In this document: in pieces, positions 13,434 through 53,871 of the stretch
How the letters are laid out: every line of letters begins with the position of its first letter
How positions within the stretch are numbered: the stretch's first letter is position 1
The notes under the pieces: model-generated
Seen by the model: only the letters and a program-made list of their open reading frames with translations
Database searches by the model: none
What the model was told of the DNA's origin: nothing
Source: Dehalococcoidia bacterium
GTDB taxonomy: Bacteria; Chloroflexota; Dehalococcoidia; UBA6926
Assembly (NCBI GenBank): GCA_965220565.1
Contig: CBDCQG010000001.1
Coordinates: 462,030-526,029 of the forward strand
Direction of reading: 5' to 3'
DNA length: 64,000 bases
Position numbers and translations under genes: made by a program

Positions 13434-14642
13434 ATGAGTGGACCACTGGAAGGTCTCCGAATCGTCGATTTAACCCGCATCCTCGCGGGGCCGTTCGCAA
13501 CCATGATTCTATCCGACATGGGCGCGGAGGTCATAAAGGTCGAACGCCCCGAGGGCGGCGACCTCTCTCGCGGCACAGGCCCGTTCTTCGAAGGAGAGAG
13601 CTATTACTTCGTCAGCGTCAACCGCGGCAAACAGAGCGTCAGCATCAACCTCGCTCACCCGGATGGGCAGCAGGCGCTGAAAGACATCGCCGCCGAGTGC
13701 GACGTGCTCGTCGAGAACTTCGTCCCCGGCACGATGGCCAATTTCGGCCTCTCCTACGACGACCTGCAGGCGGTGAACCCCCGCCTCGTCTATTGCTCCA
13801 TCTCCGGCTTCGGCCAGACCGGCCCCTACGCTCAGCGTCCTGCGTTGGACATCATCGTGCAGGCGATGGGCGGCATCATGAGCATCACCGGCGAGCCCAA
13901 CGGCGGCCCCGTCCGCCCCGGCAGCTCGCTCGGAGACATGATTGCCGGTCTCTTTGCAACAACCGCCATCCTCGCCGCCGTGCAGGAACGGGAGCGGAGC
14001 GGGCAGGGGCAGTACATCGACGTTTCGATGCTGGAGTGCCAACTCGCCATCCTTGAGGCCGCCGTCGGGCGATACGTCTCGACAGGCCACGTCCCCGGCC
14101 CCATCGGCACCCGCCACCCCTCGTTCACACCGTTCCAGGCGTTCAAGACGGCGGACGACTGGATCGTTGTGGCGATTGTCGGCGGCGTGAACGACCAGTG
14201 GCCGCTGTTCTGCGCCGCCATCGACCGCGTGGACCTGATCGATGATGTCCGCTACGTCGATGGCTACCACCGCACCCTGAATTACGACCAGCTGATTCCC
14301 GAACTGGAAGCGGCGCTTGCCGCCAAACCCGCCGAGCAATGGCTGCGCGAGCTTGGGCGGCTCGGCATCGCATGCGGCCCCGTCAATCGCATCGACCAGG
14401 TGCTGGCGGACGAGCAGGTCCGGGACCGCGGCGCGATGGTGGACGTTCCTCACTCGCGCGTCGGCAGCATCCCCGTCGTCAACTCGCCCCTGCGCTTCTC
14501 CCGCACCCCCGTCGGCAACCTCGGCCCCGCCCCCGACCTCGGCGAGCACAACGAAACCGTCCTGCAAGGCCTAACCGGCTACACGGAAGAAACGCTGGAA
14601 CGCCTACGCACAGAGGGCGTCATCGTGGCAGAGGAGGGGTGA
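13434..14642 (+). CDS. CoA-transferase family III (CaiB/BaiF) protein
   Basis: ATG 13434 with GGAAGG SD (track ORF begins at upstream TTG 13398); LEGLRIVDLTRILAGPFATMILSDMGAEVIKVE motif. Confidence 0.85.
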   Translation: MSGPLEGLRIVDLTRILAGPFATMILSDMGAEVIKVERPEGGDLSRGTGPFFEGESYYFVSVNRGKQSVSINLAHPDGQQALKDIAAECDVLVENFVPGTMANFGLSYDDLQAVNPRLVYCSISGFGQTGPYAQRPALDIIVQAMGGIMSITGEPNGGPVRPGSSLGDMIAGLFATTAILAAVQERERSGQGQYIDVSMLECQLAILEAAVGRYVSTGHVPGPIGTRHPSFTPFQAFKTADDWIVVAIVGGVNDQWPLFCAAIDRVDLIDDVRYVDGYHRTLNYDQLIPELEAALAAKPAEQWLRELGRLGIACGPVNRIDQVLADEQVRDRGAMVDVPHSRVGSIPVVNSPLRFSRTPVGNLGPAPDLGEHNETVLQGLTGYTEETLERLRTEGVIVAEEG

Positions 14643-14655
14643 TGGGGTAGGGACG

Positions 14656-15726
14656 CTAATCCCCGTTCACTTCGTCACAGATTTGCCTAAGCAGGTTGAT
14701 GACAGCGTCATCAAAAGGGCCTGTTTTATATGGCCGAGGATTAGATGACGGCCAACCCCAAGCGAACTTCTCAGATAACGCTTGCCAGGCTAGGGGCGCT
14801 CTTTCTTGCGCATTCGAAGAGGTCTCTAAAGCCACAGCACCGTTAAGGCAGTAAATGGTGTAGAGAAAATGATTGTCTTGTGACCGCACACTAAGGGTGG
14901 CGCCTCGCTCTATACGGTGGCTCCAGACCCTGATGGATTGCTTCTCTGACAGTTCCTTTACAAGACTGATCACGTTTCTAAAGTCGTCTTGTTGTGTGGA
15001 CGCAAGCTCATTGACGGTATCGACGAATTTGTCAATATTTTCCACCAACGGATCCGAGGATGTGTTCCGTTGCTGAGCCTGCGTCTCCTGCTCACGGTTA
15101 CGTGCCGTGACCAGATAGTCTTGAGCCTCCGGCAACGGAATGACTTGATCAATGTCTAGTAGAAGCTTGCCCTCATGCCGGTACGCTCGGACTCGGACGC
15201 ATCTGATATCCAACCCCATCTCGTTCAGCCAGAGGACTGATGTTGTGATTTCCTTGTTGAAATCCTCGGAGACGAGAATAATGCGCGGGCGCTCTGTGGC
15301 GATCGAGAAGTCGCCATCTTCTGCCGTCAGGTTAAGATGTTCACGGATTCGTTCTTCAGCCGACTCATTGATGTTCTTGTTTCTCAAGTAGCGAGCGTGA
15401 CCGTCAATGATGCTCTGTGTCTGGAAATTTGCCAGCATCGCCGCATAGCGAATTGCCTGCAACTCCATATGAACGCCGTCACCGCGTTTCAACTCGACAA
15501 CGACCAAATTCCCGGATGAGTCAATGCAAAGCAGGTCAATGTATCGCCAGGCGTCCTCCCAATCCGTGAATTCGTCGGCGATAACGAATAGACCTTCCTC
15601 AATGAATTCTGGGTGCTCGCGGAGAGCTTCTTGGAGGTCCGCCTCTGCGACACTTTCTTCGTGGAATGACGTCCGGTCAATCCCAGTCAAAGTCTTGTTA
15701 GTCATTTCATAGAGCATCCGCTTCAC
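14656..15726 (-). CDS. PD-(D/E)XK nuclease, DUF91/NucS-like N-domain plus about 190-aa C-terminal domain of unknown function
   Basis: 356 aa in a 42-52% GC patch; IDLLCIDSSGNLVVVELKRGDG...ELQAIRYAAM resembles RecB-like D..(D/E)xK nuclease core; no recognisable motifs in C-terminal half. Confidence 0.6.
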   Translation of the reverse strand: MKRMLYEMTNKTLTGIDRTSFHEESVAEADLQEALREHPEFIEEGLFVIADEFTDWEDAWRYIDLLCIDSSGNLVVVELKRGDGVHMELQAIRYAAMLANFQTQSIIDGHARYLRNKNINESAEERIREHLNLTAEDGDFSIATERPRIILVSEDFNKEITTSVLWLNEMGLDIRCVRVRAYRHEGKLLLDIDQVIPLPEAQDYLVTARNREQETQAQQRNTSSDPLVENIDKFVDTVNELASTQQDDFRNVISLVKELSEKQSIRVWSHRIERGATLSVRSQDNHFLYTIYCLNGAVALETSSNAQERAPLAWQALSEKFAWGWPSSNPRPYKTGPFDDAVINLLRQICDEVNGD

Positions 15727-15775
15727 TTCCTTGTTCGCAATTGCCGATCCCCAAACACTTTACTGCCCCCCCTAT

Positions 15776-16090
15776 TCATGAGACTCCCATCCCCTCCCGC
15801 GGCCGTATCTCCTGTAACTGATCCGCCTCAGCGTGTTCAGCATGATAAAGGTCCCAGCGTAGTTGCAGATTCATCCAGAAACCCGGGGAATTGCCGAAGA
15901 ACCGGGCAAGTCGCAGGGCAGTGCTTGGTGTCACACCTCGGCGGCCCCGCACAATCTCATTCACTCGTTGATACGGCACCCTAATCGCCTCGGCCAGGTC
16001 ATGCTGAGTCATCTCCATGGGGTCGAGGAACTCTTGCAACAACATCGCGCCGGGGTGCGTCGGCTCCCTATCTGTCGGAATGCGTACCAT
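15776..16090 (-). CDS. HigA-family HTH (XRE) antitoxin-like protein
   Basis: 104 aa; PTHPGAMLLQEFLDPMEMTQHDLAEAIRVPYQRVNEIVRGRRGVTPSTALRLARFFGNSPGFWMNLQ matches HigA/VapI antidote family. Confidence 0.75.
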   Translation of the reverse strand: MVRIPTDREPTHPGAMLLQEFLDPMEMTQHDLAEAIRVPYQRVNEIVRGRRGVTPSTALRLARFFGNSPGFWMNLQLRWDLYHAEHAEADQLQEIRPREGMGVS

Positions 16091-16112
16091 GTCTTTTCAC
16101 CATTGATGTAGA

Positions 16113-16191
16113 TGGCGTCCCCGGTGGGACTCGAACCCACAACCTGCGGATTAGAAGTCCGCTGCTCTGTCCGGTTGAGCTACAGGGACGC
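16113..16191 (-). tRNA. tRNA-Arg (anticodon TCT)
   Basis: reverse complement gives GCGTCCCTGTAGCTCAACCGGACAGAGCAGCGGACTTCTAATCCGCAGGTTGTGGGTTCGAGTCCCACCGGGGACGCCA; 7-nt anticodon loop CTTCTAA; CCA encoded. Confidence 0.85.
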
Positions 16192-16299
16192 GCTGAGGTC
16201 GCGGCATCCCATCCATGATAGCGCCGCGAATCTACGGGCGAAGCCGTGTGTGTTTCGCAGCCTGTCGGTAAAGGACCAGGTCGCGGCAGCCTTGCGCTC

Positions 16300-16842
16300 T
16301 TACGCGCTGGATTCGGCAGACTCGTTCTGCGGCGGCGGAGCGTCCACCACGTCCGGCAGCCACGTATACACGCGATGGAGCGGTCTGCCTGCCCCTCCCA
16401 ACTGGGACACGCTCTTGATCTCCAGCCCGCCGATGTCGGCTTTCGTCGTCCACTTGCGCTGGACGACCGCGCCCGCCCTGAACGAGCCGATGAGCGCCAG
16501 GGCCGACAGCCCCATCGCCTGCGGCAGCCGCCCAACCCGGTTTCGTGTGCCGAGGATCATCCCCGTCAGCAGGGCAGTCGTCATGCCGCCAAGCAGGAAA
16601 TTCGTGCCGCAGAACGGCGAAATCGCCAGGTGGGATTCCCCCGCCCGCAGCCGCTCGACGGCCTCTTTCGCCGCGTCCTCGATGCGGTCTGCCGTCGTGG
16701 GGCCATAGACGAAGAACCCGTCCTGCTTGGCGCTGCCGCCGAGCCGGCCAAACTGGTCATATTTGCGACCGAGCACGGCAATCGTCGCGTGCTCAATCGC
16801 GTGGTTCTGTCGGATGCGGTCTATCAACTCAAGAATATCCAT
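16300..16842 (-). CDS. hypothetical protein
   Basis: ORF 16300..16881; probable start at MDILELIDRIRQNHAIEHATIAVLG (16842); no recognised motifs. Confidence 0.4.
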   Translation of the reverse strand: MDILELIDRIRQNHAIEHATIAVLGRKYDQFGRLGGSAKQDGFFVYGPTTADRIEDAAKEAVERLRAGESHLAISPFCGTNFLLGGMTTALLTGMILGTRNRVGRLPQAMGLSALALIGSFRAGAVVQRKWTTKADIGGLEIKSVSQLGGAGRPLHRVYTWLPDVVDAPPPQNESAESSA

Positions 16843-16909
16843 CGCACTTTCGAGTATGGGAACCGCGCCAAACAGGGTCAAGAAAGACGACGCGATTTGA
16901 TACAGCTAT

Positions 16910-17179
16910 CTAGAAGCGACGGATTACTCTGTCATATTCCGCGTGCGGGCCAATCCAGAACCAGACAACATCTCCATCCACCATAAGAGCCAGGGCACGA
17001 TAGTGCTCTCCGATCCGCACGGAATAGAGCGGCTCCCTCACTCCAACTCTCTTGAATGCGAGACTCCGGTGATATGGGTCTGTGCGAAAGAATTCGTATG
17101 CGCGCTTGGCTTGCTCTTGTACGGACTCAGGCAGTCGCCTGAACTCAATCCAGAAGTTGCGCTCAGTGAACGAGCGCAC
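16910..17179 (-). CDS. type II toxin, RelE/ParE superfamily
   Basis: 89 aa, GTG start; FWIEFRRLPESVQ...SVRIGEHYRALALMVDGDVVWFWIGPHAEYDR typical of RelE/ParE-fold toxins; start overlaps antitoxin stop by 1 nt. Confidence 0.7.
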   Translation of the reverse strand: MRSFTERNFWIEFRRLPESVQEQAKRAYEFFRTDPYHRSLAFKRVGVREPLYSVRIGEHYRALALMVDGDVVWFWIGPHAEYDRVIRRF

Positions 17180-17406
17180 TAGCCAAAATCTTCCTCACGA
17201 AGAGGCTTGGTGCGCCCGGCTTTATGCTCAGCGCGAACCTTTTCTGCCATCTTTTCGAGCCACTCTTGGGATTCCGGGGACGCAAGCAATTCGTCCCACT
17301 TCTTGTCTGCATCCATTTCTTCGAGGATTACCGCCGCGAGAGTTTCTTGCTTCTCTTCAGGCAGTTCCGCTGCCTTTTCAAACGCCTGTTGAAGTAGCTT
17401 ATTCAT
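17179..17406 (-). CDS. type II antitoxin (addiction-module antitoxin paired with RelE/ParE toxins)
   Basis: 75 aa from ATG 17404-17406 (MNKLLQQAFEKAAELPEEKQETLAAVILEEM...); track merges it into an over-long 244-aa ORF. Confidence 0.65.
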   Translation of the reverse strand: MNKLLQQAFEKAAELPEEKQETLAAVILEEMDADKKWDELLASPESQEWLEKMAEKVRAEHKAGRTKPLREEDFG

Positions 17407-24835: not shown

Positions 24836-24877
24836 CACCCATCAACCGTCATTCCCGCGAAAGCGGGAATCTGAATC
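24836..24877. repeat. dispersed hairpin repeat, family 1 (GTCATTCCCGCGAAAGCGGGAATC), with partial upstream half-copy
   Basis: perfect 8-bp stem ATTCCCGC/GCGGGAAT with GAAA loop; copies at 44211-44240, 49001-49030, 53781-53871, 36523-36549 (inverted), 37421-37452 (variant). Confidence 0.7.
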
Positions 24878-25659: not shown

Positions 25660-25790
25660 CCCGTACCACCTCATTCCGGCGACGGCCGGAATCCAGCCGG
25701 TCTGCCCAAAAGACACACGCAATTATACGCGTCGGGTCTATCCATCTGAGCCGCGAATCTGAAACAATCTGAAAACAAGGAGAATCACAT

Positions 25791-32511: not shown

Positions 32512-35503
<2,992 letters not shown>

Positions 35504-35611
35504 ACCTACTACTTACCTCGTTTCTACCCCACAATGGATGACCGCAATGGTCAGCACATGAAATCCCTTTTCTTGACCCGTTCACTTGTTTCGGCGCCAA
35601 CCGCCTACCCC

Positions 35612-35671: not shown

Positions 35672-35746
<75 letters not shown>

Positions 35747-35759
35747 ATCTCTTTCACTC

Positions 35760-36545
35760 ATGTCCCGCTCTCTGAAGATCTTCACCCTCTTCGGCACCCC
35801 GGTACGGGTCAATTACACGTGGCCCATCGCCCCCATATTCATCACCATCGTCCTTGGCACGGTGCTTGTTGAAGACCTGGAATTCTCAGGAGGTCTCGCC
35901 CTCAGTTACGGGTTTAGCGCAATCATTGCCCTCAGCCTCACCGCCGCTATCCTGCTGCACGAATTCGCTCACGTCCTGGTCGCCCGCCGATTCGGCATCC
36001 GCGCGTCCGCCATCACCCTGTTCGCCCTGGGCGGAGTCTCTCACATCGACGATGAGCAGAAAGGCCCCGGCAGTGACCTGGCCATCTCCATCGCCGGCCC
36101 GCTGGCGAGCATTGTGCTTGGAGTCGCCTCGTACCTTGCCTCGGTACTTTTGACCGCCCCGTTCGCGGTCGCCTGCCAGGATGTTTACTCCGAATCGCTC
36201 GCGTGTGCCTCAGGCCCTTCGCTGCTCGGCCTCCCGTTTTACTACCTCGCCATCGCCAACATCATCATCGGGGTCTTCAACCTGCTGCCCCTGTTTCCCC
36301 TCGACGGCGGCCGCATCCTCAGCGCCATCCTTTGGGCAATAACGAACAACCGGCAGCGGGGGGTCAGGATCGCATCACTGGTGGGCCAACTCGGCGCGGG
36401 CGCGATGATCATCTACGGCGCCCATAACCTCTTCTTTGGCGAGCTGCTCGTCGGCGTCTGGCTCATCGCCATCGGCGTCTTCCTCATGGAAGCCGCGGTG
36501 GGGGCTGCGCCAGGCCGTGCTGGATTCCCGCTTTCGCGGGAATGA
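35760..36545 (+). CDS. M50-family (site-2 protease-like) membrane metallopeptidase
   Basis: 261 aa; HEFAHVLVARRFG (HExxH) and NLLPLFPLDGGR motifs; C-terminal codons run into a family-1 repeat. Confidence 0.8.
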   Translation: MSRSLKIFTLFGTPVRVNYTWPIAPIFITIVLGTVLVEDLEFSGGLALSYGFSAIIALSLTAAILLHEFAHVLVARRFGIRASAITLFALGGVSHIDDEQKGPGSDLAISIAGPLASIVLGVASYLASVLLTAPFAVACQDVYSESLACASGPSLLGLPFYYLAIANIIIGVFNLLPLFPLDGGRILSAILWAITNNRQRGVRIASLVGQLGAGAMIIYGAHNLFFGELLVGVWLIAIGVFLMEAAVGAAPGRAGFPLSRE

Positions 36546-36549
36546 CGGG
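36523..36549. repeat. dispersed hairpin repeat, family 1 (inverted orientation)
   Basis: GATTCCCGCTTTCGCGGGAATGACGGG. Confidence 0.65.
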
Positions 36550-36553
36550 AATT

Positions 36554-36778
36554 CTAAGTCGCTGCCGAGGCCGTAGTCGGCGCGAGGGAGTCAAGAAGAG
36601 TCGCGGAAACACGGGCGATGTCCTGGACGGCCTGATCGAACGCCGGTCGATTGCGCTGTGACGGCACGCGATAGCCGCTGATCTTCCGCACGAACTGCAG
36701 CGCCGCCTCCCGGACCTCATCCTCGGACGCTGCCGGCCCGTCGCTGACCCTCAACCGCTTGATACTCCGGCACATCAC
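36554..36778 (-). CDS. DUF2277-family protein
   Basis: 74 aa; MCRSIKRL...ALQFVRKISGY pattern characteristic of DUF2277. Confidence 0.65.
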   Translation of the reverse strand: MMCRSIKRLRVSDGPAASEDEVREAALQFVRKISGYRVPSQRNRPAFDQAVQDIARVSATLLDSLAPTTASAAT

Positions 36779-37053
36779 CCAATCTCCTTACGCTGTAGCC
36801 ACATCCAAATGCCGCCCCACATGGCGGATGATTCATGCGCTCTCTTGTTCAGACCAAGCCAAATGAATCCTCATAATCTGTTTGCCGCTGCCGCCTAACT
36901 GCACATGCGGAGAGATGCTAGCGGATTGGTTGCAAGCGCCGTCTCTGACAGTGCGCCCGAATTTCTGACGAGCCTGCTGACCTTCATGTGGCTCGTAATC
37001 GACGTTGCGCATGGCCCGCCAATTCTTAGGAGATGTATCTAGAGTCCCCTTCA

Positions 37054-37267
37054 TTACTCCGTTGTCATATAGAGCGTCTCATCGTCAAGCTCACCACGCC
37101 GCTTCAAAGCATCGTACTCTTTCTGTGTTATAACCTTCATCGGCATGATTTCGAGATAACCTCTGACTGCAGACTTGATTCTCCTGAGTTTTAGAACACT
37201 CCAAACGACACCCACTAAAGCGGCAATCGTAGCAAAGAGATCTACTATGTCGATGAACTCAGCCACC
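37054..37267 (-). CDS. small membrane protein, hypothetical
   Basis: GTG 37265-37267 preceded by perfect GAGGAGG SD; single TM helix (FIDIVDLFATIAALVGVVWSVL) then charged tail; low-GC islet. Confidence 0.35.
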
Positions 37268-37420
37268 GTGCACCTCCTCACAGCCCCCTCTGAGGTGTCT
37301 TGACTCTCACGGGCAGGATGGCCAGTTACCACTTGGGGCCAGCACTTTTTGTGTCAGTTTACCATCGCCCTCTTTTCTTGCTTTTGTGACAAGCTCCCGT
37401 CATACACCCAGCCCTCATTC

Positions 37421-37452
37421 CGGCGAAAGCCGGAATCCATCATCCCCGTCTA
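37421..37452. repeat. dispersed hairpin repeat, family 1 variant (CATTCCGGCGAAAGCCGGAATC)
   Basis: same architecture with CCGGC/GCCGG stem. Confidence 0.55.
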
Positions 37453-37564
37453 ACGGATAGTCTTGGCCAAACTGCTTGCCGATCCTCGATCCGAAGACCA
37501 TATTCAATTGATGGCAAGCCCAATACCTAGGAACACGGCACAAAGGGACTATAGGAGAAAACAC

Positions 37565-38449
37565 ATGGTTGACGGCCTAAACATCTTCATCAATGAAGAC
37601 CTTAGCAAGCCAGAGAATCGCGTAAACCTCGCATTGTTCTCACTAATGCAACAAGACTGGTTCCGCGTATGGTTCTTGGAACAACTTGGCCTTGATGTGA
37701 ACGCTGTTGTTTATCCGCCAGTGAATGTACGGGGTCGGCGTCCAGACTTGAAAGTCGAGCGGGATGGGAAGCCCGTCGCATGGATCGAAATCGAGCTTGG
37801 CAAGAATGAGAAACAAGTTCGAGATTACCAAAGCATTTTCAGAGAGACGGTAAAGACGGTATGGGGCAAGAGAGAAGATAAGGGCGACCTCAGCTTAGAG
37901 GAGGTTAGGGAGTTTGTCATCGAGAAGCGCGACCAAGGGTCCCTGTCCTTGCAGGACAAACTTCATTGTGAGTATCTGGCGAAACTGATTGAGAAAGGAC
38001 TGAACGGACATACAGCGGCTCAACCCCGCGCAGGCGTGTCAGAGATAATGCGCAAGGAGCATCTAATCGTGGCGCTGGAGGGAGCCCTTGGAGACCGGCT
38101 CCACTACACCATTGGGCCTGTTGGCAGGGATTTCATCAGAGCTGATACCGTTGGGCAAAATGGAATCTCGCTCAAGGTGAATCGACGCGATAGGTCGGGT
38201 TACGTAGCGATATTCTCCATCTCGGCAGGCTCTCGGATTATCTTTCCAAGCAGGCAAAAGCTCGAGCGTTGTCTGCGAGGGAAAGATAATGCAATTGGCG
38301 ACTATTTGCGCTTTATTCAAGACGAAATGCGCTGTGACGTAGACGTTGATCGAAACAACGCTACTCCTCAGCCAAGCCTGGAAGAGCACAGGAGTCAGCT
38401 CGTGGATTCTGTTGGCGAACTCTCTAAGCTGATCTTGGCGCTGGCCTAG
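37565..38449 (+). CDS. hypothetical protein (possible PD-(D/E)XK-like motif)
   Basis: ATG 37565 with AGGAGA SD (track ORF from 37463 overlaps repeat); about 50% GC; RPDLKVERDGKPVAWIEIELGK segment loosely resembles nuclease core. Confidence 0.45.
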   Translation: MVDGLNIFINEDLSKPENRVNLALFSLMQQDWFRVWFLEQLGLDVNAVVYPPVNVRGRRPDLKVERDGKPVAWIEIELGKNEKQVRDYQSIFRETVKTVWGKREDKGDLSLEEVREFVIEKRDQGSLSLQDKLHCEYLAKLIEKGLNGHTAAQPRAGVSEIMRKEHLIVALEGALGDRLHYTIGPVGRDFIRADTVGQNGISLKVNRRDRSGYVAIFSISAGSRIIFPSRQKLERCLRGKDNAIGDYLRFIQDEMRCDVDVDRNNATPQPSLEEHRSQLVDSVGELSKLILALA

Positions 38450-38483
38450 CAAGAACCCTCCCGCTCTCTGCTATTCTGTCCAC

Positions 38484-38957
38484 ATGACGGCATCCAATCG
38501 GTCAAACGGCGCCAATCCGGACGCCCGCCAACAGGCGCGTGACATCATCACCGGCTACGTCGGCCACAAGGGCGCGCTCCTCATGGCCCTGCTGGACGTC
38601 CAGTACCAGCTCAACTACATCCCGGAAACGACCGTCGATGACGCCGCCGAGATCCTTGGCTACTCGAAGCCGGAGGTGTGGGGCGTTCTCTCCTTCTACT
38701 CCGATTTCTCCGTGGGGCAGGGCAGCGACCACTTCATCGACGTGTGTATCGATGCCCCGTGCCACGTCACCGGCGCGCGGTCCATCGAACGCGCCATTCG
38801 CGACGCCGTGGCTGATTCGGATGTGGAGGTGCGCCCTATCTCATGCCCACGCCTCTGCAACCAGGCCCCCGTCGTCGCCTACGACCAGCAATGGCGGGGC
38901 CAACTGACGCCTGATACCGCCGCCGAATTCGCCCGAAACATGGGAGTTGCTTCCTGA
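38484..38957 (+). CDS. nuoE: NADH-quinone oxidoreductase subunit E-like [2Fe-2S] thioredoxin-fold protein
   Basis: 157 aa; Cys ligands in CIDAPCHV and CPRLCNQAP. Confidence 0.8.
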   Translation: MTASNRSNGANPDARQQARDIITGYVGHKGALLMALLDVQYQLNYIPETTVDDAAEILGYSKPEVWGVLSFYSDFSVGQGSDHFIDVCIDAPCHVTGARSIERAIRDAVADSDVEVRPISCPRLCNQAPVVAYDQQWRGQLTPDTAAEFARNMGVAS

Positions 38958-38959
38958 CT

Positions 38960-40651
38960 ATGTCCTCTGATATCTACACCACACTCAAGCAAGAAGCTGA
39001 CGCCGCGTGGGCGGAGTGGGATGACCCGTCCATTGCCCGCGTCAGCGTCGGCATCTCTGCTGCCGCCCTCACCGTCGGCGCAGGCGAGACGCTTGAGGCA
39101 ATCCAGTCGACACTAGGGGAACTCGATATCGACGTTCGGCTGCTGGAAGTCGGAGACATCGGCTTCTCGTGGGCCGATCCCGTCGTTCACATTGCCCCGC
39201 CCAACATGCCGCGCATCACCTACGGAAAGGTGACGGCCGATGCCGCGCCCCAACTGATCCGTGATGTGCTTGTGGACGGCAACCTGCGACCGGATCTTGC
39301 GCTCGGCGTACAGGGCGATACACCCATCGACGGCGCAGACATCCCTCTCCTCGATGAGCAGAACTGGATGCGCGACCAACTCCGCCTCCTGATGACCAAT
39401 TTCGGCCATATCGAGCCGGGCAATTTGATGCACTACGTGGCCCGTGGCGGCCTGGAATCGCTGGACAAGGCGCTGAATGAGATGTCGCCGCAGGACGTTG
39501 TGGATACCGTCCGCAACTCCGGCCTGCGCGGGCGCGGCGGCGCGCTTTTCCCCGCCGGCGTCAAGTGGAGCTTCATGGGCCCGCCCGGCCCCGGAGACCG
39601 CTATCTCGCCATCAACGGTGAGGAGGGCGACCCCGGCGCGTTCACGGACGCTGCCATCGTCGAGAATGATCCACATCGCCTCTTGGAAGGCATCCTGATT
39701 GCCTCCTATGCGATGGGCGCAAACAAGAGCTATATCCACATCCGCGCCGAATACCGGCTACCCCTTGAGCGGCTCCGCCGCGCGCTCCATGAGATGGAGG
39801 AGCGGGGACTCGTTGGCGATAACATCATGGGCACCGACTTCTCCCATGAGGTCGAGATCGAGGCCACCGGCCACGCCTATATCTGTGGTGAAGAGACGGC
39901 GCTGATGGAGTCCGTTGAGGGCAAGCGCGGCGCGCCCCGCCCACGCCCGCCGTTCCCCGCCGCCTACGGCATCTTTGGCCGACCGACCACCATCAACAAC
40001 GTCAAGACGATTTCCTATGTTCCGCATGTGCTTGAGATAGGCGCGGAGGCATTCGCCGCCATCGGCACGGAGAACGCGTCCGGCACGGCGATGTTGTCAC
40101 TTTCCGGCCATATCAATAAACCCGGAATTGCAGAAATCCCCGTTGGAATTAATTTGGCCGGAGTTATTGAAAACGTTGCGGGCGGCATTCGCGGCGGCAA
40201 GAAAGTGAAGGCTCTCCAGTGCGGCGGCCCGCTCGGCGGCATCATGCCCGCTTCCGAGATGGACATGCCGGCTGAGTTCCAGGCCATGACCGCCAAGGGC
40301 AGCCCGCTCGGTTCCGGCGGCATCCTCGTGCTTGATGAGGACACCTCCATCGTGGATCTCGTCAAGAACATCGCTGAGTTCATCGACGCGGAATCGTGCG
40401 GCAAGTGCTTTCCGTGCCGCAAGGGAGCGACCCATATCTCCCACCTGCTTGCCAATATCATGGAGGGCTACGGGCAGGAGGGCGACCTCGACAAGATACA
40501 GAACGTTGGCACGTCGATGGTGCAGGGCTCGCTGTGCGGCCTGGGGCAGCTCGCGCCCGGCGTCCTGAACAGCGCCATCCGCTATTTCCGTGAGGAATTT
40601 GAGGAGCATATCAGGGCAGTTTCTGCCGCGCCGGCCCACGCGCAGCCCTAA
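38960..40651 (+). CDS. nuoF: NADH dehydrogenase flavoprotein subunit F-like (NuoF/HoxF/FdsB family) with N-terminal extension
   Basis: 563 aa; GLRGRGGALFPAGVKW (FMN/NADH site), ESCGKCFPCR 4Fe-4S; about 130-aa N-terminal extra domain. Confidence 0.85.
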   Translation: MSSDIYTTLKQEADAAWAEWDDPSIARVSVGISAAALTVGAGETLEAIQSTLGELDIDVRLLEVGDIGFSWADPVVHIAPPNMPRITYGKVTADAAPQLIRDVLVDGNLRPDLALGVQGDTPIDGADIPLLDEQNWMRDQLRLLMTNFGHIEPGNLMHYVARGGLESLDKALNEMSPQDVVDTVRNSGLRGRGGALFPAGVKWSFMGPPGPGDRYLAINGEEGDPGAFTDAAIVENDPHRLLEGILIASYAMGANKSYIHIRAEYRLPLERLRRALHEMEERGLVGDNIMGTDFSHEVEIEATGHAYICGEETALMESVEGKRGAPRPRPPFPAAYGIFGRPTTINNVKTISYVPHVLEIGAEAFAAIGTENASGTAMLSLSGHINKPGIAEIPVGINLAGVIENVAGGIRGGKKVKALQCGGPLGGIMPASEMDMPAEFQAMTAKGSPLGSGGILVLDEDTSIVDLVKNIAEFIDAESCGKCFPCRKGATHISHLLANIMEGYGQEGDLDKIQNVGTSMVQGSLCGLGQLAPGVLNSAIRYFREEFEEHIRAVSAAPAHAQP

Positions 40652-44185: not shown

Positions 44186-44210
44186 AAAGACACGGAAGTA
44201 GAATCAACAC

Positions 44211-44240
44211 GTCATTCCCGCGAAAGCGGGAATCTGAATC
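44211..44240. repeat. dispersed hairpin repeat, family 1
   Basis: GTCATTCCCGCGAAAGCGGGAATCTGAATC directly abutting ATG of next gene. Confidence 0.7.
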
Positions 44241-48971: not shown

Positions 48972-49000
48972 ACCCAACCTGACATTTCCGCCCCGTGCCC

Positions 49001-49030
49001 GTCATTCCCGCGAAAGCGGGAATCTTGATC
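49001..49030. repeat. dispersed hairpin repeat, family 1
   Basis: GTCATTCCCGCGAAAGCGGGAATCTTGATC. Confidence 0.7.
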
Positions 49031-53780: not shown

Positions 53781-53871
53781 CCGTCATTCCCGCTGTACTC
53801 CGCCATTCCCATACACACGCCGTCATTCCCGCCCCCCTCCGTCATTCCCGCGAAAGCGGGAATCTGAATCA
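53781..53871. repeat. tandem cluster of family-1 repeat half-copies plus one full copy
   Basis: CGTCATTCCCGC x3 partial, then GTCATTCCCGCGAAAGCGGGAATCTGAATC. Confidence 0.7.

Follow-up and report, generated by a model that had tools for sequence, protein, structure and literature searches.

A rare stand-alone PD-(D/E)xK nuclease-fold protein in a replaceable low-GC slot between the DUF2277 and nuoE genes of a Dehalococcoidia bacterium

We analyzed a 64,000-nt stretch of the genome of a Dehalococcoidia bacterium (Chloroflexota, lineage UBA6926; assembly GCA_965220565.1, contig CBDCQG010000001.1, positions 462,030 to 526,029; hereafter the window), centering on an islet of low guanine-plus-cytosine content (GC) between the gene for a DUF2277 protein and a nuoE-like gene. 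This patch is compositionally foreign DNA lodged between two host genes in a replaceable slot, and its only demonstrable gene, here termed gene A, is real and codes for a stand-alone two-domain protein of 294 residues. The protein very probably adopts the PD-(D/E)xK (restriction-endonuclease-like) nuclease fold with an intact active site, and the gene is in all likelihood an accessory, horizontally exchanged cargo. The family that it typifies is uncatalogued and undescribed, belongs to a superfamily that is itself very large and well known, and combines two motif variants seldom seen together. The islet further contains two short open reading frames (ORFs), B and C, and a copy of a hairpin repeat. 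The coordinates of these features are collected in Table 1.

A preliminary description, made from the sequence alone, had reported a drop in GC to about 45–50% over some 1.7 kb. The dip itself is genuine: with 51.3% GC, positions 36779-38460 form the minimum among all 1682-nt windows of the stretch (mean 61.9%, standard deviation 2.4%), about 4.4 standard deviations lower. The range first given was slightly low; 400-nt windows across the islet lie between 0.497 and 0.535, and 45.5% is reached by ORF B alone. The tetranucleotide distance of the same positions from the window average ranks first of 312, exceeding even that of the 23S rRNA gene. Further, GC at third codon positions is 0.75 ± 0.07 in host genes versus 0.57 in A, 0.51 in B, and 0.55 in C. 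GC, codon usage, and tetranucleotides thus all bear out the atypical make-up noticed earlier.

The preliminary description had also recognized a divergently transcribed gene at 37565-38449 behind an AGGAGA Shine–Dalgarno sequence; both stand, the length of the product being 294 and not 295 residues. The N-termini of its homologues align with the ATG at 37565, the annotated frame scores best of all six under the host codon model, and the ratio of nonsynonymous to synonymous substitution rates (dN/dS) against the closest relative, the contig L001 described below, is 0.33. A search of a database of 5.8 billion clusters recovered 89 homologues, the majority full-length. Those that have a source name are called hypothetical, apart from one partial match named for DUF6508, and the few sources that are identified belong to the Dehalococcoidia or Chloroflexi. 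An exhaustive hidden Markov model (HMM) search of 1.84 billion representative proteins yielded 308 clusters of the family (E <= 1e-3), the complete members of which share the two-part architecture of A. Among 185,579 species genomes, 37 carry the gene, distributed among some 10 lineages at the level of phylum or class, namely the Dehalococcoidia, SAR202, an Acidimicrobiia relative, and Binatia (Chloroflexota, Actinomycetota, and Binatia), and beyond them Desulfobacterota (Desulfobacteraceae), Bacteroidota, Ignavibacteria/Melioribacter, Cloacimonadota, Gammaproteobacteria (Methylococcaceae), Myxococcota (Myxococcaceae), and Planctomycetota (Sedimentisphaerales). Thus, the family is both rare and phyletically scattered. 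The GC of the gene lies below that of its flanks in 28 of 33 loci drawn from all these phyla, with a mean gap of 4.9 points. In agreement with the earlier statement that A has no assignable family, Pfam, NCBIfam, PADLOC, and PHROGs returned no match, and Pfam gave no hit even at E <= 1, the PDDEXK_1, Cas4, and YqaJ-type profiles included.

The nuclease assignment rests on predicted structure and on conservation. A full-length AlphaFold (AF2) model built from a 36-sequence alignment has a mean predicted local distance difference test score (pLDDT) of 92.6 and displays the alpha-beta-beta-beta-alpha-beta core of the restriction-endonuclease-like fold. Its best match in BFVD is a PD-(D/E)XK nuclease, and the top structural matches include the repair nucleases Bax1 and NucS; profile searches of the PDB with alignments of the full-length protein and of the N-domain returned only noise. 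In the model, E17 lies in the first helix, P60-D61 begins the strand formed by residues 62-66, E75-x-E77 ends the strand formed by residues 69-77, and Q84xxxY88 falls within the helix of residues 82-91. The predicted arrangement is that of the classical motifs I, II, and III. In a MAFFT alignment of 149 full-length members, as low as 22% in identity, these and some further positions are nearly invariant: E17 (98%), N18 (97%), R19 (99%), and N21 (98%); R59 (99%), P60 (98%), and D61 (100%); E75 and E77 (99% each); and Q84 (99%), Y88 (94%, otherwise F), and Q130 (100%). The impression of a PD-(D/E)XK core, originally drawn from the segment RPDLKVERDGKPVAWIEIELGK, is thus sustained by both structure and conservation.

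Two features of this predicted active site set the family apart. First, the final residue of motif III is a glutamate in place of the canonical lysine. Since E77 is 99% conserved despite this loss, we argue that it is functional, and the model suggests an acidic triad of D61, E75, and E77 in which glutamate stands for the usual lysine, as in BamHI. The arrangement E17...D61...E75-x-E77 parallels E77, D94, E111, and E113 of BamHI; such an E...D...ExE site supports catalysis in BamHI and OkrAI, and the ExE variant is rare among restriction endonucleases, being known only from BamHI with its isoschizomers and from BtsCI, enzymes in which it is active (PMC3025578). Second, A has a QxxxY motif in the helix right after motif III, a position in which it is a hallmark of the RecB family (PMC2475608), which comprises RecB, AddAB, Cas4, lambda exonuclease, and the nuclease domain of Type I HsdR. 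Unlike that family, A has ExE rather than ExK in motif III, matches neither the PDDEXK_1 nor the Cas4 HMM, and stands alone with neither a helicase partner nor the cysteines of an Fe-S cluster. Among its closest known systems is the PD-(D/E)xK phosphodiesterase superfamily, as exemplified by Bax1, NucS, NgoMIV/Cfr10I, and AF1548.

The C-terminal module is also found as stand-alone or fragmentary proteins of about 140 residues, and in the member P0090 it is tandemly duplicated (about 135 residues each). An internal duplication within A was rejected, as hhalign of the N domain against the C domain gave a probability of 0.3%. Some members are elaborated further. A subfamily (P0107, P0124, P0125, P0128, P0133, P0137, and P0139) has an extra conserved N-terminal domain of about 125 residues (residues 1 to ~125-150) that bears an INP(H/Y)Y motif and is not matched by Pfam, and P0072 and P0094 have an unexplained C-terminal extension of about 160 residues; a RusA-like identity for the extension of P0072 was dropped, being unsupported by Pfam or PDB sequence searches. 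The apparent link to DUF6508 was likewise set aside: the protein concerned, P0089, consists of a DUF6508 domain joined to a truncated N-terminus of A, the other long members carry a different unnamed N-terminal domain, and a literature search on DUF6508 found nothing.

The replaceable nature of the slot emerges from two relatives: L001, a 2.6-kb Logan contig collinear with the window and the only close relative found, and L048, a contig from a JGI metagenome that is syntenic from the 23S rRNA gene through nuoF. The nuoE-nuoF side of L048 is about 84% identical to the window. On the other side, homology extends about 90 nt upstream of DUF2277, to ~36870-36880, and it resumes at 38463; these limits define the real variable slot as ~36881-38462. 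In L048 the slot is occupied by an unrelated, low-GC gene on the other strand (L048 2527-3510, minus strand) for a 327-aa ATLF-like metalloprotease. This protein has a signal- or anchor-like N-terminus, a long Pro/Thr-rich linker, and an ATLF-like domain (anthrax lethal factor-type; Pfam E = 2e-7). The order 23S-tRNA-M50-DUF2277 is also present in L048.

L001 keeps A in the same slot, without B or C. Nucleotide identity between it and the window is 87.6% in DUF2277, 94.9% in nuoE, and 90.8% in the available portion of nuoF, as against 97.9% in A (97% at the protein level), and the synonymous divergence (dS) is 0.046 for A versus 0.20 for nuoE, 0.37 for nuoF, and 0.45 for DUF2277. Identity reaches 98-100% over 37461-38360 and is 88-96% in the flanks. 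Over window positions 38361-38457 (L001 1251-1349), which cover the final ~100 nt of A and the bases just past its stop, it is 84%, so that the 3' end of A is more diverged than either the gene body or the adjoining nuoE flank (93-96%). On this alignment, a recombination breakpoint lies inside gene A, near its 3' end, and the simplest reading of this one sequence pair points to a recent exchange of most of the gene by recombination. The two contigs differ further in a 644-nt segment encompassing B and C, for which L001 has just 54 nt. As the ~90 nt at its left end are common to the window and L048, the difference more likely arose by deletion in L001 than by insertion in the window, and L001 probably lost the leader stretch 36793-36880.

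The preliminary description held that homologues at this locus in all relatives would tell against acquisition; the relatives divide on this point, A being present in L001 and not in L048. Its broader proposal of horizontally acquired cargo finds support in the extreme composition, the differing slot contents, the patchy family, the low GC of A in most of the loci compared, and the exchange between the window and L001.

We then examined the neighborhoods of A homologues. All-against-all clustering of the ORFs of 42 loci gave no shared neighbor, the recurrent "neighbors" being antisense shadow ORFs of A itself. Among 103 neighbors (two per side) from 29 genomes, no Pfam or PADLOC family was seen more than three times. 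DNA methyltransferases are found near A in just 2-3 of the 29 genomes, none being common to different loci, and the ORFs and Pfam matches of the window include no methyltransferase between DUF2277 and nuoE. With no conserved partner and so few methyltransferases, A is a solitary gene and not a classical restriction-modification (R-M) endonuclease. Genes of defense, toxin–antitoxin systems, and mobile elements abound in the annotated neighborhoods: HicB directly downstream of A (L002 and L043); two PIN genes, a ThsB-TIR gene, an integrase, and a transposase (L003); an OLD-TOPRIM and UvrD pair (Gabija-like), PDDEXK_1, and GmrSD_C (L045); SIR2-HerA and a transposase (L051 and L052); NYN, an HhH-GPD/DNA-methylase fusion, and an ORC/Cdc6-like gene (L049); a recombinase and transposases (L053); and elsewhere Fic, Phd/YefM, CARF-RtcR, a SNF2 helicase, and an integrase. 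Separately, in one subclade (52-55% identity to A), every homologue is preceded by genes for a HisKA_3 histidine kinase and a GerE-type response regulator (L045 4085-7029; L049 3949-6879; L051/L052 3822-6879). Downstream of A in the same subclade, the defense system differs from case to case, being the Gabija-like pair and GmrSD (L045), SIR2-HerA (L051/L052), or the DNA-methylase fusion and ORC/Cdc6-like gene (L049), placing the homologue at the fixed edge of a variable defense island.

Taken together, these observations are most compatible with A being a single-gene accessory nuclease, a reading favored because there is neither a methyltransferase nor any other fixed partner. Its N-terminal ~105 residues would form the PD-(D/E)xK catalytic domain, with the triad D61/E75/E77 and with E17 on the first helix, and the RecB-type Q84xxxY88 helix would hold the DNA backbone. 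The helical linker and the C-terminal alpha/beta module might select the target or sense a signal. Such an enzyme could act in modification-dependent (Type IV-like) or other defense against mobile elements, or possibly as a selfish element, and would move between lineages via recombination through conserved flanks. Catalytic activity, DNA as the substrate, and a role for the C-terminal domain are each our deductions, and the composite, in which A is an active metal-dependent DNA endonuclease with a target-selecting C-terminal part and a defense-like or selfish role, has in our estimate an even chance of being right. A defense role specifically is a more tentative proposal, falling short of even. 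The most specific version is possible but rather unlikely: a single-gene anti-phage or anti-plasmid nuclease whose catalytic center, combining the BamHI-type ExE with the RecB-type QxxxY, is guided by a new C-terminal fold for sensing or recognition, and whose family is concentrated at the edges of defense islands in uncultured Chloroflexota (Dehalococcoidia and SAR202), Ignavibacteria, and Bacteroidota.

Like the Type IV and single-gene defense nucleases (Mrr, GmrSD, PvuRts1I-like, and MspJI-like), A joins a lone PD-(D/E)xK domain to a separate non-catalytic domain, lacks a methyltransferase, and is patchy, AT-rich, and situated in variable islands beside defense genes; unlike them, it has no HMM match and no recognized reader fold in its C-terminal module. 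Neither a recognizable modified-base reader nor an HMM match to Mrr, McrBC, GmrSD, or SRA-like families was found in it. In contrast to Type II R-M systems, A has no cognate methyltransferase beside it. With horizontally acquired islets in general, the locus shares atypical base composition and codon usage and a content that varies among relatives, and differs from them in having no tRNA junction, integrase, or flanking direct repeats at the slot.

Several points weigh against this reading or parts of it. As the canonical lysine of motif III is absent, activity is not to be assumed, and the spatial convergence of the invariant residues is deduced from their positions in the predicted secondary structure. 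Neither SRA, YTH, and winged-helix folds nor any other known reader fold could be recognized in the C-terminal module, and A, B, and C hit none of the defense HMMs of PADLOC-DB v2 at E <= 1. The association with defense, toxin–antitoxin, and mobile genes is suggestive, being qualitative and without a background control, and the homologues in L046 and L009 lie among purely metabolic genes. As to mobility, neither att-like direct repeats nor terminal inverted repeats were found at the slot boundaries, the ORFs and Pfam matches of the window include no integrase or transposase within the slot, and the tRNA-Met gene lies 1.1 kb from the slot with two host genes between. Further, the diverged 3' ends suggest that A was at the locus before the lineages of the window and L001 split, and hence that it is not a very recent arrival in the window lineage.

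Among the alternatives, A might be a housekeeping or stress enzyme of nucleic acid processing (DNA repair or recombination, or RNA processing) that is merely AT-rich. The structural resemblance to Bax1 and NucS, the fixed position downstream of the HisKA_3/GerE pair in one clade, and a UvrA-like gene adjoining the homologue in L046 are in keeping with such a role, which we nevertheless consider unlikely given how rare and scattered the family is (308 clusters in 1.84 billion proteins), that an unrelated gene takes its place in L048, and that most of its hosts differ from it in base composition, which marks it as foreign there. A selfish, free-standing endonuclease of the homing type, which would cleave the unoccupied DUF2277|nuoE site or an allele related to it and then be copied in during repair, is improbable. 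It would account for the presence of a solitary, patchily distributed gene at the same place in two strains, with a similarity far above that of the flanks. However, homing co-converts flanks, and here the high-identity tract stops in the 3' end of A and never enters them; homologues elsewhere are found in many unrelated contexts and not in one target gene; the L048 slot is neither empty nor occupied by A; and the comparison rests on one strain pair.

Two further possibilities concern the biochemistry and are each quite improbable. A could be the orphan or remnant endonuclease of a Type II-like R-M system, its methyltransferase being elsewhere in the genome or lost. An unprotected Type II endonuclease would be lethal, about 26 of 29 genomes lack a methyltransferase next to A, no such gene is common to the loci, and the lone-gene family retains its catalytic residues under purifying selection. 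Alternatively, A could be a catalytically dead nuclease fold that only binds DNA or acts as a regulator. The replacement of the motif III lysine by glutamate would fit, as K/E swaps severely impair cleavage in EcoRI, EcoRV, or BamHI (PMC3025578); however, the identical ExE arrangement sustains activity in BamHI and OkrAI (PMC3025578). The acidic metal ligands and QxxxY of the family are all 94-100% conserved. Inactivated nuclease folds normally lose their catalytic residues.

Finally, B, with or without C, could form one module with A as a membrane-anchored partner, antitoxin, or abortive-infection effector, a notion invited by their divergent arrangement around a common 298-nt intergenic region, their shared low GC, and the strong ribosome-binding site and transmembrane segment of B, but highly improbable and largely refuted by L001, in which A is intact and under purifying selection without either ORF.

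Indeed, B- or C-like neighbors were found neither in L001 nor at any other A locus (more than 40 loci), in contrast to the conserved pairing of toxin–antitoxin or other two-gene modules. As A stands without both in L001 and every other genome, they are not part of its nuclease function. ORF B has, as first described, a textbook GAGGAGG ribosome-binding site (37273-37279) before a GTG start, and a single hydrophobic segment (19-residue Kyte-Doolittle maximum of 2.28); the GTG had been placed one position too far, at 37265-37267, and the spacer is 6 nt rather than 5. The ribosome-binding site and the transmembrane-like segment suggest that B is possibly a young or orphan, strain-specific small membrane protein, to which we give a little less than an even chance. 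Scored with the host codon model, its frame outranks the other five, yet its codon usage is atypical. ORF C had been called questionable, and rightly so: its frame, too, is the best of six, by a small margin, and it has no homologue. Its last ~16 codons lie inside the segment conserved with L048 upstream of DUF2277, the TAATG overlap with the stop of B is the sole point in its favor, and it looks unprotein-like, making it doubtful as a gene. Coding potential is thus upheld for A and remains weaker for the two short ORFs.

Neither short ORF has a homologue in the 5.8-billion-cluster database, in a search that required shared 5-mers and that very distant relatives could escape, and neither matches a family in Pfam, NCBIfam, PADLOC, or PHROGs. 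A scan of JGI metagenomes, run with B only, gave no relative; the 644-nt B-C segment matched no plasmid or phage; and Pfam found nothing in an extended B ORF or in all other small ORFs of 36905-37564. A candidate paralogue of B at window positions 16594-16728 (tblastn E = 0.033) was dismissed as a non-coding frame of a DUF6391 gene. An Rfam scan of 36700-37600 found no RNA element, and a promoter and terminator scan did no better than chance.

The intergenic region between B and A contains, as the preliminary description had noted, a variant of a hairpin repeat that recurs in the window. This family resembles repetitive extragenic palindromic (REP) elements and has the consensus GGATTCCCGCTTTCGCGGGAATGACGG; six copies are present in the 64-kb window versus 0.00 expected by chance, and looser hairpins lie at 25673 and 55188. 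In the variant core, ATTCCGGCGAAAGCCGGAAT at 37417-37436, two mismatches compensate each other by turning a C:G stem pair into G:C, and the predicted fold has an energy of -13.6 kcal/mol (z = -3.7). Homology with L001 resumes at 37437, at this copy, and L001 starts exactly within the copy that begins at 36522, as would fit a break of its assembly at a repeat. Like REP elements, the repeat is a short GC-rich intergenic palindrome, with the variant keeping its pairing by compensatory change and standing at the edge of an indel; it differs in that the family is defined only within this window and that no RAYT transposase was found, no search aimed at one having been made.

Elsewhere in the window, neither a 5S nor a 16S rRNA gene adjoins the 23S rRNA gene anywhere in the 64 kb; tRNA-Met(CAT) follows it instead, and the rRNA operon is thus unlinked. 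A further low-GC islet (14400-17200, about 54% GC) codes for a 356-aa protein with a NucS_C PD-(D/E)xK domain (14656-15726, minus strand; Pfam E = 8e-9), a HTH_3 (HigA-like) protein (15776-16090, minus strand) whose gene abuts tRNA-Arg(TCT) (16113-16189, minus strand), and a ParE-like toxin (16910-17179, minus strand). By BLASTP the NucS_C protein is unrelated to A; a lone nuclease-fold gene thus resides in each of the window's two separate low-GC islets.

Table 1. Features of the islet and its surroundings (window positions; a dot marks features without strand)
Feature	Position	Strand	Remarks
23S rRNA gene	32512-35505
tRNA-Met (CAT) gene	35672-35746
M50 peptidase gene	35760-36545
Canonical hairpin copy	36518-36548	+	lies between DUF2277 and the M50 peptidase gene; makes a 31-nt inverted pair (87% complementary) with 37412-37442
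DUF2277 gene (left flank, host)	36554-36778	-	Pfam PF10041, E = 3.9e-25; syntenic in L001 and L048
Segment replaced by 54 nt in L001	36793-37436	.	644 nt; DUF2277 leader, C, B, and hairpin; from blastn and alignments
DUF2277 leader/upstream region	36793-36880	-	host DNA, not cargo; alignable between window and L048 despite differing cargo
ORF C	36833-37054	-	73 aa, probably no gene; ATG overlaps stop of B as TAATG
Variable slot, DUF2277 leader to nuoE	36881-38462	.	true islet extent; edges from L048 homology; GC 0.51
ORF B	37054-37266	-	70 aa, putative single-pass membrane protein; GTG start 37264-37266; orphan, coding unproven
Variant hairpin copy (REP-like)	37412-37442	-	3 mismatches to consensus; right edge of segment missing in L001
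Ribosome-binding site of A	37552-37557	+	AGGAGA, 7 nt upstream of ATG; read from sequence
Gene A	37565-38449	+	294-aa stand-alone two-domain nuclease-fold protein; stop codon included
A residues 1-104	37565-37876	+	predicted PD-(D/E)xK nuclease domain: E17, R59-P60-D61, E75-x-E77, Q84-xxx-Y88
A residues 105-294	37877-38446	+	helical linker (about 105-150) and C-terminal alpha/beta module (about 153-294) without recognized relative
nuoE-like gene (right flank, host)	38484-38957	+	2Fe-2S thioredoxin-like ferredoxin; Pfam PF01257, E = 3.5e-23; syntenic in L001 and L048
563-aa ORF	38960-40651		NuoF-like label given from its position only
Hairpin repeat copies	24846-24872, 36522-36548, 37412-37438, 44209-44235, 48999-49025, 53839-53865

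Uncharacterized PD-(D/E)xK families are common, and the surprise to a specialist should thus be moderate at best; the locus has no bearing on a long-standing open question. As it stands, it offers a compact example of a replaceable cargo slot amid housekeeping genes, with three relatives, three contents, and no integrase involved. If our reading of A is correct, the family would be an uncatalogued group of stand-alone nucleases with an unusual catalytic signature and a domain without a solved structural relative, found mostly in uncultured lineages with poor coverage in catalogues of defense systems. It would then add one more single-gene defense or selfish nuclease, and possibly a new DNA-recognition module.

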